Of a DNA stretch of 64,000 nucleotides, positions 10,007-51,935 are shown one piece after another. The notes under the pieces are model-generated. The model was not told where the DNA came from. It ran no database searches and saw nothing but the letters and a program-made list of their open reading frames with translations. The number at the start of each line of letters is the position of its first letter. Positions within the stretch are counted from its first letter, which is position 1. The position numbers and the translations under genes were made by a program. The DNA is taken from assembly GCA_034090805.1 (NCBI GenBank), contig JAXDRV010000138.1, positions 66,188 through 130,187 of the forward strand. Direction: 5' to 3'. Source of the DNA: Clostridia bacterium. GTDB lineage: Bacteria > Bacillota > Clostridia > UBA1381.

Positions 10007-10513
10007 ATGGAAAGATATACGCTTTCGGTGCTTGTTGAAAATCATCCCGGTGTTCTTTCGAGAGTAGTCGGACTGTTCAGCCGCAGAGGCTTTAATATAT
10101 ATTCGCTGTCTGTGGGTACAACGGTAGACGATACGGTATCACGTATCACGATAGAGGTTGAGGGTGATTCGCTTATTGTCGAACAGGTTTCCAAGCAGCT
10201 TTCAAAGCTTATGGAGGTTATAAAAATAAAGACGCTTCCGAGCAATGAAATGGTAAAAAGAGGACTTATCCTGTGTAAGGTGCGTGTATCGCCCAAAACA
10301 AGGGGAGAGGTCATAGAGATAACAAATATCTTCCGTGCCAAGATAATCGATATATCACCGTCCACGATGACGATTGAGCTTACGGGAAATGACAAAAAGC
10401 TTGACGCATTTTTGGATATGATTTCGATTTACGGTATTGAAGAAATTGCAAGAACGGGTATGACGGCTCTTGAAAGAGGCGCAAATGTTTTGAAGCTTGA
10501 TAAAAACAGTTAA
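10007..10513 (+). CDS. ilvN: Acetolactate synthase small (regulatory, ACT-domain) subunit
   Basis: ATG 10007 lies 1 nt after the ilvB stop. ACT-domain sequence YTLSVLVENHPGVLSRVVGLFSRRGFNI. Confidence 0.92.
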   Translation: MERYTLSVLVENHPGVLSRVVGLFSRRGFNIYSLSVGTTVDDTVSRITIEVEGDSLIVEQVSKQLSKLMEVIKIKTLPSNEMVKRGLILCKVRVSPKTRGEVIEITNIFRAKIIDISPSTMTIELTGNDKKLDAFLDMISIYGIEEIARTGMTALERGANVLKLDKNS

Positions 10514-10549
10514 TAACGAGGTGCAAAAGCCTCCTATTATATAATTCAA

Positions 10550-10796
10550 TAGGTAATTGTAAAATGTCGGTTGGGGATTTGAGAGTGTTTTTGAATTTAT
10601 TCGTACTCAAACATCCCTTGCGGTAACTCGTCCGAACAAACTCAAAAACACTCTCAAATCCTATAATTTTGAAAGAATTTGTGATGTTTATGATTGAGTT
10701 TCGGCGAGTTACCGAACAAAGTGAGGGATGTCTGAGCCGAGGCTCAAGCAGAAATATCTCAAATTCCTAAGAAATCTCGAATTTTACAATCGCCTA
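10550..10796 (+). mobile_element. MITE-like modular repeat, composite form (TIR-L, hairpin module A 10575-10661, inverted paralogous module B 10675-10766, TIR-R)
   Basis: Ends are TAGGTAATTGTAAAAT ... ATTTTACAATCGCCTA. The direct repeat TATATAATTCAA lies at 10538-10549 and 10795-10806. Homologous to 7 other loci in this window. Confidence 0.85.
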
Positions 10797-10810
10797 TATA
10801 ATTCAACTAA

Positions 10811-11857
<1,047 letters not shown>

Positions 11858-12379: not shown

Positions 12380-12883
12380 TTAGAACGGTAGGTCGTCTTC
12401 GCTGCCGTCAATATTGGCAAAGTCCATTTCATCAAAATCTCCGCTGCCGAAATTCGGCTCAGCTCCGCCCTGGGGCGCTCCGAAGGACTGTGCCTGCGGT
12501 GGCTGATTATTGTATCCGCCGCCGTAATTCTGGTTATAGCCGCCGTTTGAGCCTGTGCCTGTTTCCGCTTTTGAGCCGGTAAAGTATGCCTCGTCAATAA
12601 CAACCTCAGTTGAATACTGACGCTTGCCCTCTTTATCGTCCCATGAACGAGTCTGTATGTTTCCCACAACGGCAATCATGCTGCCTTTTTGGAAATATCT
12701 GCATATGAACTCCGCAGTCTGACGCCATGCCGTGCAGCTGATAAAATCAGCCGTCTGCTGACCGTCTTTGCCGGCAAATCGTCTGTTCACCGCAATGGTG
12801 AGCCTTGCAACGCTCACTCCGGCGGGAGTTTGTCTTAATTCGGGGTCACGTGCCAAACGCCCCATTAAAATAACCTTGTTCAT
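12380..12883 (-). CDS. ssb: Single-stranded DNA-binding protein
   Basis: OB-fold N-terminus MNKVILMGRLARDPELRQT, Gly/Asn/Gln-rich linker, and acidic tail DDLPF. Confidence 0.95.
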   Translation of the reverse strand: MNKVILMGRLARDPELRQTPAGVSVARLTIAVNRRFAGKDGQQTADFISCTAWRQTAEFICRYFQKGSMIAVVGNIQTRSWDDKEGKRQYSTEVVIDEAYFTGSKAETGTGSNGGYNQNYGGGYNNQPPQAQSFGAPQGGAEPNFGSGDFDEMDFANIDGSEDDLPF

Positions 12884-22834: not shown

Positions 22835-22986
22835 CAAATCCTATAAATAATTATAATTTTGAAAGAATTTGTGATGTTTATGATTAAGTTTCGGCGAGTT
22901 CTCGAACGAAGTGAGAGATGTCTGAGCAGAAGCTTAATCAGAAATATCTCAAATTCCGGTGGAATTTCGAATTTGGCAATTAGACG
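22834..22986 (+). repeat. Partial copy of the MITE-like family (module B plus right TIR only)
   Basis: Region 22865-22956 aligns with module B of the 10550 and 51680 copies. The right end GAATTTGGCAATTAGACGG resembles TIR-R. Module A is absent. Confidence 0.75.
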
Positions 22987-28890: not shown

Positions 28891-29032
28891 TAGGCAATTG
28901 TAAAATTTCGGTTTGGGATTTGAGAGTATTTTTGATTTTATTCGTACTCAAACATCCCTTGCGGTAACTCGTCCGAACAAACTCAAAAACACTCTCAAAT
29001 TCCGAGGGAAACTCGAGTTTTGCAATCGTCTG
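28891..29032 (+). mobile_element. MITE-like repeat, short form (TIRs plus module A)
   Basis: Ends TAGGCAATTGTAAAAT ... GTTTTGCAATCGTCTG. A perfect 12-bp duplication AATAAATATAAT lies at 28879-28890 and 29033-29044. Confidence 0.9.
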
Positions 29033-33596: not shown

Positions 33597-33725
33597 CCGT
33601 GCATTTGCGAAATGACGGTTGAGATTTGAGCGTGTTTTGAGTTTGTTCGGACGAGTTACGCTTGCGTATGTTTGAGTCCGAATAAATTCAAAAACACTCT
33701 CAAATTTAAATTTTACATTTATTGT
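33597..33725 (-). repeat. Decayed short-form copy of the MITE-like family, reverse orientation
   Basis: Region 33623-33705 is the reverse complement of module A (GATTTGAGCGTGTTTTGAGTTTGTTCGGACGAGTTACG...). The TIRs are degenerate. Confidence 0.75.
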
Positions 33726-37249: not shown

Positions 37250-37391
37250 TTGGCAATTGTAAAACGGCGGTTTGGAATTTGAGAGTATTTTTGAATTTAT
37301 TCGTACTCAAACATCCCTTGCGGTAACTCGTCCGAACAAACTCAAAAACACTCTCAAATTCCGAGGAAATAACGAGTTTTACAATCGCCTG
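37250..37391 (+). mobile_element. MITE-like repeat, short form
   Basis: Ends TTGGCAATTGTAAAAC ... GTTTTACAATCGCCTG. About 90% identical to the 28891 and 41123 copies. Degraded 12-bp flank repeat TAATATATATAG / AAATATATAAAT. Confidence 0.88.
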
Positions 37392-41122: not shown

Positions 41123-41263
41123 TAGGTAATTGTAAAATGTAGGTTTGGGATTTGAGAGTATTTTGAGTTTATTCGCACTCAAACATCCCTTGAGGTAACT
41201 CGTCCGAGCAAACTCAAAAACACTCTCAAATTTTGAGGAAATCTCGAGTTTTACAATTGCCTG
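41123..41263 (+). mobile_element. MITE-like repeat, short form
   Basis: Ends TAGGTAATTGTAAAAT ... GTTTTACAATTGCCTG. Flanking 8-mers CTATAAAG (41115-41122) / TTATAAAG (41264-41271). Confidence 0.88.
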
Positions 41264-43454: not shown

Positions 43455-43665
43455 CTGCCCAATACACATTTTCTCTGGAATTTGAGATATTTCTGATTAA
43501 GCTTCCGCTCAGACACCCCTCACTTCGTTTGGGAACTCGCCGAAACTCAATCAGAAACATCACAAATTCCCCCAAAGCTGTAACAACTTGTAGGATTTGA
43601 GAGTATTTTTGAGTCTGTATAAACTCAAAAATACTCTCAAATCGAAAACCGAAATACTTATTATT
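43455..43665 (-). repeat. Decayed composite copy of the MITE-like family, reverse orientation
   Basis: Region 43477-43570 is the reverse complement of module B. Region 43593-43643 is a shortened module A forming a perfect 21-bp stem. The TIRs are eroded. Confidence 0.8.
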
Positions 43666-51679: not shown

Positions 51680-51935
51680 TAAGTAATTGTAAAATATCGG
51701 TTTTGATTTGAGAGTATTTTTGATTTTATTCAGACTCAAACATCCCTTGCGGTAACTCGTCTGAACAAACTCAAAAACACCCTCAAATCTCCCAATTCGT
51801 TACAGTTTCGGGGGGATTTGTGATGTTTCCGGTTAAGCTTCGGCGAGTTCCGAACGCAGTGCGGGTGTTTGTGCCAAAGCTTAATCGGAAATACCCCCAA
51901 TTCGGTGACGGTAATCCGCATTTTACAATTACCTG
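51680..51935 (+). mobile_element. MITE-like repeat, composite form (modules A and B)
   Basis: Ends TAAGTAATTGTAAAAT ... ATTTTACAATTACCTG. Collinear with the 10550 copy. Weak flank repeat TTCAATATG / TTTAATCTG. Confidence 0.85.

Follow-up and report, generated by a model that had tools for sequence, protein, structure and literature searches.

Non-autonomous, TIR-bounded transposable elements of bacteria (MITEs) are usually seen as inert insertion-sequence remnants that are held together by their ends only. Closest in concept to the element described here is bcr1 of the Bacillus cereus group, a non-coding MITE-like repeat of ~150 bp that is flanked by direct repeats and transcribed, and whose two independent stem-loops are kept by compensatory changes and have been read as a structured single strand (PMC3184786). 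The present element is likewise a small Firmicute MITE-like repeat with two stem-loops and compensatory changes, but its duplication is ~12-13 bp (5 bp in bcr1), no sequence similarity between the two is known, its stem-loops are inverted paralogues of one module, and its tip recurs on unrelated stems in distant organisms. Closest in geometry is the REPIN. REP/REPIN elements (PMC3116915, PMC3337134), which RAYT (Y1) transposases mobilize, resemble the present element in having a hairpin arranged as an inverted doublet with a short spacer, in copy numbers of hundreds, in compensated stem changes, and, on the reading preferred below, in being replicators that depend on structure and conserve the part that is recognized. 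REP units are ~25-35 nt long, with a 5′ GTAG-type tetranucleotide as their conserved part, and REPINs are not known to have TIRs or target duplications; the present units are ~90 nt long, their conserved part is the tip, and the copies have both TIRs and duplications. The Correia/NEMIS repeats of Neisseria and the ERIC/IRU, RUP, and BOX repeats are also small, non-autonomous, gene-adjacent in either orientation and capable of long hairpins, they can supply promoter parts, and BOX is likewise modular (see also PMC3184786). However, the duplications of Correia, ERIC, and RUP are TA or a few bases long, and their hairpin consists of the TIRs themselves (TA and 26-nt hairpin-forming TIRs in Correia/NEMIS), whereas here ~12-13 bp are duplicated and the hairpins are internal cargo between the TIRs, with a tip that is conserved across phyla.

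The window (64,000 nt, G000:C138:66188-130187) belongs to a genome, G000, of 2.54 Mb, 44% GC and 147 contigs. The flagged stretch lies in the 315-bp spacer between an ilvN-like ORF (end at 10513) and ilvC (start at 10829). Window positions 10550-10796 are one copy of a MITE (~247 bp) with 16-nt TIRs and a ~12-bp target duplication, and its cargo, 10575-10766, is a hairpin module of ~90 nt that is present twice, as A and B, the two having diverged and lying inverted to each other. The parts are as follows.

10538-10549, no strand: TATATAATTCAA, the left half of the target-site duplication; a 12-nt direct repeat (D2) with 100% identity between this half and 10795-10806
10550-10565, plus: left TIR, TAGGTAATTGTAAAAT; inverted repeat I4, and the point at which the 65-copy alignment begins
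10566-10574, no strand: left linker from TIR to hairpin A; a conserved GTCGGTTTGG-type linker in the copy alignments
10575-10661, minus: hairpin module A (inverted repeat I2), its favoured, G.U-containing fold on the minus strand by folding
10603-10633, minus: apical core of A, minus-strand reading GGAC-GAGTT-ACC..GGG-ATGTTTGA-GTAC; invariant or near-invariant columns of alignment A1, homologous to the inverted B apex
10662-10674, no strand: A-B linker of 13 nt, found in all A+B composites
10675-10766, plus: hairpin module B, inverted diverged paralogue of A (alignment of A with the reverse complement of B), its favoured fold on the plus strand by folding
10703-10738, plus: apical core of B, GGC-GAGTT-ACC..GGG-ATGTCTGA-GCC; exact match to the core pattern (G000:C138:76890-76925)
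10767-10780, no strand: right linker, the same as the right-hand linker of single-module units
10781-10796, minus: right TIR, plus-strand reading ATTTTACAATCGCCTA; inverted repeat I4 and copy alignments
10795-10806, no strand: right copy of the target-site duplication (direct repeat D2), overlapping the terminal TA of the element

Repeat detection in the window recovered both inverted repeats at the positions where a first-pass annotation of this DNA had placed them; the arms of module A (10575-10606 and 10630-10661, 32 nt each) are 91% complementary and those of module B (10666-10705 and 10736-10775) 75% complementary. The TIR sequence has 153 matches in the genome at two or fewer mismatches, and the B-type apical core is found also in the sister species and on distant metagenome contigs.

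BLAST and a module census place ~97 A-type and ~83 B-type modules at ~116 loci in G000, together ~1% of the genome. Size and dispersal are those of a MITE (138-266 bp, non-coding, 116 loci in 2.54 Mb, nearly all intergenic), as are the ends: the 16-nt TIRs are common to the copies, the duplication around the present copy is a perfect 12 nt, and ~35 of 43 TIR-bounded copies are flanked by A/T-rich target duplications of ~12-13 bp. The modules occur as TIR-A-TIR (~138 bp), TIR-A-B-TIR (~250 bp), and TIR-B-TIR (~147 bp) units, and in A+B composites their relative order and orientation are always identical; the family also includes tandem arrays (BBB, AAA, ABBB) and copies with decayed ends. Further occurrences in the window itself are as follows.

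22865-22956, plus: solo B-type module (C138:89052-89143)
28916-29000, minus: A-type module, the only one of a ~140-bp unit upstream of leuC (C138:95103-95187)
33623-33705, plus: A-type module, reversed (C138:99810-99892, a minus match, so that the favoured strand is plus)
37277-37359, minus: A-type module of a single-module unit (C138:103464-103546)
41148-41231, minus: A-type module of a single-module unit (C138:107335-107418)
43478-43569, minus: B-type module of a decayed reverse composite (C138:109665-109756, minus)
51705-51903, no strand: second A+B composite of the window, with A at 51705-51789 and B at 51816-51903 (C138:117892-118090)

Two variants of the family may be mentioned here. About 25 copies carry a GC-rich hairpin (GGGGCGG-N7-CCGCCCC) in place of the 3′ part of module B (for example, G000:C100:2998-3130, C50:2545-2700, and C26:5470-5620), with a T-run on neither strand. 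Tandem arrays of two to four modules without intervening TIRs lie at G000:C5:10251-10580, C145:31199-31458, C19:36456-36773, C121:10515-10879, and C13:4723-5191 and, in the sister species, at L042, L153, and L154, with periods of ~110-190 nt over these arrays.

TIR pairs of the same family may also be empty, as in a 48-bp mini-element, or enclose hairpins of another kind (G000:C129:14010-14057, G000:C14:~12620-12790, and G000:C116:~1497-1611), so the TIR element is a vehicle independent of the A and B modules, and the hairpins are its cargo. Copying of the stems from the target DNA was considered; for TIR-bounded copies it was ruled out, since their variable stems are internal to the TIRs. Duplications of 10-13 bp are typical of IS4/IS231-type DDE transposases, and IS4-derived MITEs such as MIC231 of Bacillus cereus resemble the present element in duplication length. 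The sole clear IS4-like DDE_Tnp_1 frame of the genome (433 aa, G000:C114:38449-39111) lies near a contig end, and a search of its surroundings found no ends resembling the MITE TIR. Since the TIR TAGGTAATTGTAAAAT also lacks the initial CA typical of IS4 ends, the IS4 link is only a lead. TIR pairs spaced 300-6000 bp apart in G000 enclose no transposase, in an assembly of 147 contigs that may miss a multi-copy insertion sequence. A Y1/IS200-type transposase (RAYT; Y1_Tnp, PF01797) has no match in G000 or in the congeneric sister species G002, and five of nine other congeners have Y1_Tnp matches. The likeness to REPINs that the first-pass annotation had pointed out thus holds for the geometry, with A and B inverted and 13 nt apart, and fails for the rest, there being no cognate RAYT in these two genomes and both TIRs and a target duplication around the doublet.

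That A and B are diverged paralogues in inverted orientation, as originally proposed, is borne out by alignment. Module A shares 65 identical columns with the reverse complement of B (z 8.7) and 56 with B as it stands (z 6.2), and the sequence blocks that had been quoted as shared are present in alignment A1. A/T-rich palindromes align somewhat in both orientations, as the second of these scores illustrates, and the resemblance and the strand asymmetry might on that ground be an accident between unrelated palindromes. However, the non-palindromic apex aligns in the inverted orientation only (z 4.6, with none of 1000 shuffles as good, against z -0.3 for the plus orientation), A-type variants with an 8-nt apical insert bear an apex of the reverse-complemented B type, and the tip is common to hundreds of copies in two species; the apex alignment, the insert variants, and the copy numbers already refute such a chance or artefactual origin, which is very improbable indeed. 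The further remark that the composite carries one module per strand describes the arrangement correctly, but this follows trivially, as inversion of an already polar module places one on each strand automatically, and it is no independent evidence.

On its sense strand the module consists of a long stem of 26-30 bp, a 3-bp helix (GGC/GCC), an asymmetric internal loop in which GAGUU stands opposite AUGUYUGA, and a small apical helix (CC../..GG) with a variable loop, so that the order is long stem, GGC, GAGUU, CC(loop)GG, AUGUYUGA, GCC, long stem. Across A, B, and G002, both strands of the internal loop and the GGC/GCC helix show no or almost no variation in alignment A1. The stems covary strongly in both alignments and above shuffles, the outcome that had been set as a check on the fold: in A1, 90.4% of cells are paired as opposed to 72.6% in shuffles, none of 500 shuffles reaches the score, slid controls are far lower, and 20 of 34 pairs have changed on both sides. 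In A2, which consists of metagenome matches fitted to the model and includes some antisense duplicates, both sides have changed in 29 of 34 pairs, with 651 double-changed cells against 187 in shuffles. Among 93 non-redundant G002-like hairpins, 576 cells have changed on both sides and are still paired, as opposed to 84 that have changed on one side and are unpaired. E-values of the purpose-built covariance model are rough. No Rfam 15 family is at or near its gathering score for the window region or the distant hairpins (sub-threshold miRNA-hairpin noise was returned), and to our knowledge the tip resembles none of the K-turn, hammerhead, SRP, and sarcin-ricin motifs. Stem pairing and apical sequence persist as stem sequence, TIRs, and host change, and the hairpin with its tip is therefore the conserved unit.

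Both hairpins of the window copy fold far better than shuffles on the favoured strand (z -6.3 to -8.8). With RNA parameters, module A gives -44.9 kcal/mol on the minus strand and -34.2 on the plus strand, and module B -36.1 on the plus strand and -22.7 on the minus strand; with DNA parameters, the asymmetry in this copy keeps the same sign. Genome-wide, the minus strand is the more stable in 89 of 90 copies of A and the plus strand in 61 of 61 copies of B, with a mean difference between strands of ~10 kcal/mol. Hence the claim that each module has a defined sense strand stands, but that of a nearly uninterrupted ~30-bp stem on it needs qualification for B, whose favoured stem is still interrupted three times in the window copy; A there contains only two A.C/G.U positions and one T.C mismatch. 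The disfavoured strand in this copy is itself still a strong hairpin (~-23 to -34 kcal/mol).

The first-pass annotation had also predicted that an excess of G.U over A.C pairs would persist when many copies are compared. Raw cell counts do favour G.U (350 vs 65 in A, 166 vs 48 in B, and 97 vs 55 in the G002-like family), although these copies are related. When every pair state is instead counted once and binned by its frequency among copies, states present in at least 10% of copies number 12 G.U and 1 A.C, those at intermediate frequency 30 and 28, and singletons 23 and 25. The common class divides into 3 vs 1 in A, 6 vs 0 in B, and 3 vs 0 in the G002-like family (binomial p = 0.003), and it differs from the singletons (Fisher p = 0.004). 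The predicted asymmetry is thus found among common states (12 vs 1) and not among copy-private changes, whose symmetry (23 vs 25) means that single insertions show no detectable selection; the polarity resides in variants that have spread through the families and not in post-insertion mutations. It is carried by a few inherited positions, three in A, six in B, and three in the sister family. One wobble site is homologous in all three families, a G before the T5 run that pairs with C or T after the A5 run; this site beside the T5/A5 run may be a C-to-T hotspot, and the 12 common G.U states are not fully independent. With three hot columns removed, the G002-like set retains 48 G.U and 38 A.C, and where GC and AT pairs alternate, G.U intermediates exceed A.C by ~3 to 1. 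Wobble polarity follows tip orientation in three lineages, A, B, and the family of the sister species.

Among 11 genomes of the genus, the module is present only in G000 (at least 148 matches) and G002 (at least 149). One of 150 further genomes of the taxonomic family, in another genus, carries a copy (G016:C20:6509-6595, L106). Its near identity to a single G002 copy makes mis-binning of the contig or recent transfer the probable explanation. The exact tip pattern, sought in 239 genomes of the order, is likewise limited to G000 (15) and G002 (112). The G002 hairpins have the same tip, a partly shared mid-stem, and very variable outer stems; about a quarter have, at one end or both, a recognizable TIR of this type, 41 of 43 are more stable on the sense strand defined by the tip, and a metagenome strain of the G002 species shows the same polarity in 65 of 75.

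Metagenomes were scanned for the exact tip, GGCGAGTTCC-N6-16-GGATGTYTGAGCC; only exact matches were taken, so the scan is no measure of tip variability elsewhere. Most matches come from a G002-like strain, but eight further hairpins lie on contigs of ~54% GC whose housekeeping proteins are only 21-32% identical to those of G000. Their stems are unrelated and near-perfect over 25-35 bp, their energies are about equal on the two strands, and they occupy ordinary intergenic spots after PAP2/Mur-ligase, SIS, M16-peptidase, and FliL genes. At one orthologous pair of sites on two of these contigs (L156:4659-4747 and L169:5087-5173; 86% protein and 78% DNA identity) the hairpin directly follows the same PAP2-family stop codon, with identical tip and orientation and with stems that have no similarity. 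Judged by this distribution, the tip is older and wider than the MITE, and its retention even on unrelated stems in very distant organisms fits the earlier suggestion that the conserved apex is a recognition site. Among representative genomes, neither an exact 24-mer nor a gapped apex pattern matched outside G000, the gapped pattern being too strict, as it missed the sister-species form; viral contigs yielded no tip motif, and a full-text literature search for the tip sequence returned unrelated primers only.

Orientation was counted with crude ORF calls. Between co-directional genes in G000, A+B composites are oriented with the genes in 21 cases and against them in 7, and single modules have their weaker strand in the mRNA sense 29 to 15; in G002-like DNA, the sense strand runs in gene direction 38 times and in the opposite direction 23 times. 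On these counts from both sources, the idea that the stable strand is the transcribed strand was rejected. Polarity has no relation to GC skew or the gene-majority strand (single modules 21 vs 30, composites 23 vs 17), and the orientation counts give no sign that the favoured strand is the transcribed or the fork-exposed one. The position of the elements relative to genes is more regular. A Shine-Dalgarno-like pentamer lies 14-19 nt beyond the TIR at 50 of 128 TIR-defined ends in G000, and 46 of the 128 have an outward-reading start codon 22-40 nt away; among random intergenic positions, 16% have a start within ~100 nt, and its distance is not fixed. The insertion target is a stretch of ~12 nt, about 88% A/T, directly upstream of a ribosome-binding site, as at 10797-10831 before ilvC.

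Taken together, the MITE cargo is, firmly, an inverted doublet of a structure-conserved hairpin with a recognition-like tip. It is likely but unproven that the fold matters as a single strand, with fixed polarity, in the propagation or maintenance of the hairpin lineage. The preferred reading, with a probability of about one half, is of a selfish, structure-dependent hairpin module with a conserved putative recognition tip that is used single-stranded with fixed polarity and probably does not serve the flanking genes. The module would be cis-acting, folded as ssDNA or as RNA with that one polarity, and a putative factor would read the tip during the element's own propagation or maintenance, much as a transposase reads REP/REPIN hairpins; the genes on either side would probably not be served by it, and the A+B composite would be a REPIN-like inverted doublet with one sense hairpin per strand. 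As G.T is tolerated in both RNA and ssDNA, the two are inseparable here. Selection on a single-stranded fold and not on the duplex, which the first-pass annotation had deduced from the arm mismatches, gains from the covariation and the tip-linked G.U pairs and loses from the symmetric private mutations and the orientation counts. It has also to be set against two general points: the TIRs and the target duplication suggest a DDE transposase, an enzyme that would work on duplex DNA with no need of a single-stranded hairpin, and the asymmetry is quantitative, since the weaker strand folds as well. More tentatively, the ~35-nt tip (GGC-GAGUU-CC..GG-AUGUYUGA-GCC) on its long covarying stem might be an undescribed structured motif that spreads horizontally and occurs in unrelated bacterial lineages, recognized by a putative single-strand-reading protein. 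The hairpin would then be the true replicator, captured in this genus as the cargo of a TIR-type MITE, and the system would be REPIN-like without a RAYT.

Two other explanations have to be weighed against the selfish module. The hairpins could function as RNA, transcribed with or between host genes as RNase III or other processing sites, mRNA stabilizers, roadblocks, or small RNAs, in which case the G.U bias would identify the sense strand of the RNA, with the tip as an RNA motif for protein binding. Toleration of G.U with avoidance of A.C, together with passage between GC and AU pairs by way of G.U, is the classic signature of RNA, the asymmetric internal loop of the tip could form tandem G.A/A.G pairs of a kind typical of protein-binding RNA motifs, ~40% of the element ends lie 22-40 nt before a start codon, so that many copies are just upstream of genes and could be in 5′ leaders, and the transcribed bcr1, with two stem-loops and compensatory changes, is a precedent (PMC3184786). 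Yet orientation to co-directional genes is not consistent (the weaker strand of single modules in the mRNA sense 29 to 15 in G000, but sense 38 vs antisense 23 in the sister family), at the distant orthologous site the sense strand runs opposite to the upstream gene, in L169 to the downstream gene too, copy-private mutations have no G.U preference, no Rfam family matches, and no U-tract follows the stems. A function of the hairpins at the RNA level is judged unlikely.

Alternatively, the element could be a palindrome of duplex DNA whose arms are recopied by quasi-palindrome template switching or arm-to-arm conversion without any selection on a single strand; the tip would then be a double-stranded protein-binding or recombination site, and the wobble polarity a founder effect combined with a C-to-T hotspot. 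Such recopying would readily give the near-perfect 25-35-bp stems of unique sequence in the distant lineage, and an excess of compensated over uncompensated cells of ~7 to 1 in the family of one genome is easier to obtain in this way than by selection at more than 100 loci. The symmetric private mutations, the restriction of the asymmetry to a few columns, one of them common to all families, the presence of the hairpins in either orientation to genes and to replication, and the opposite tip orientations at the same locus in two strains all fit a duplex palindrome as well. However, recopying would be expected to erase G.U pairs and not to hold them at frequencies of 10-84%, relative to the tip, the polarity of A, of B, and of the sister family has one sign, with most of the positions differing between them (12 vs 1), and G.U intermediates prevail over A.C ~3 to 1 where GC and AT alternate. 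A purely duplex palindrome seems doubtful for these reasons.

The internal cargo is the conserved part of this MITE, with an invariant tip, covarying stems, and a fixed polarity across a species pair. If the tip is indeed read single-stranded by a putative factor, the module would be a second kind of REPIN-like intragenomic replicator, and the tip a candidate for a new protein-nucleic acid recognition motif. The family lands immediately upstream of ribosome-binding sites, those of ilvC, leuC, and other core genes among them, and, to judge from this placement in the sequence, may shape the expression of biosynthetic operons in these uncultured bacteria.

Three minor observations concern individual loci. 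In two strains of the sister species (L221:1440-1600 and L161:2750-2955), one locus is occupied by clearly different members of the family, whose tips point in opposite directions, although the flanks are 99% identical and the element boundaries agree; either another copy has replaced the first or the hairpin has flipped. An insertion of ~200 bp in a metagenome strain (L129:3180-3379), absent from G002, lies between the two copies of a 10-nt direct repeat (CGGAAAGGAA) and has inverted ends of its own, and it is thus a different small mobile element. Finally, the left TIR of the window copy carries an outward-facing -35-like TTTACA, which together with a TATAAT of the target duplication makes an 11/12 sigma-70-like hybrid promoter (10536-10563, minus strand) that reads out of the left end of the element, antisense to ilvN.
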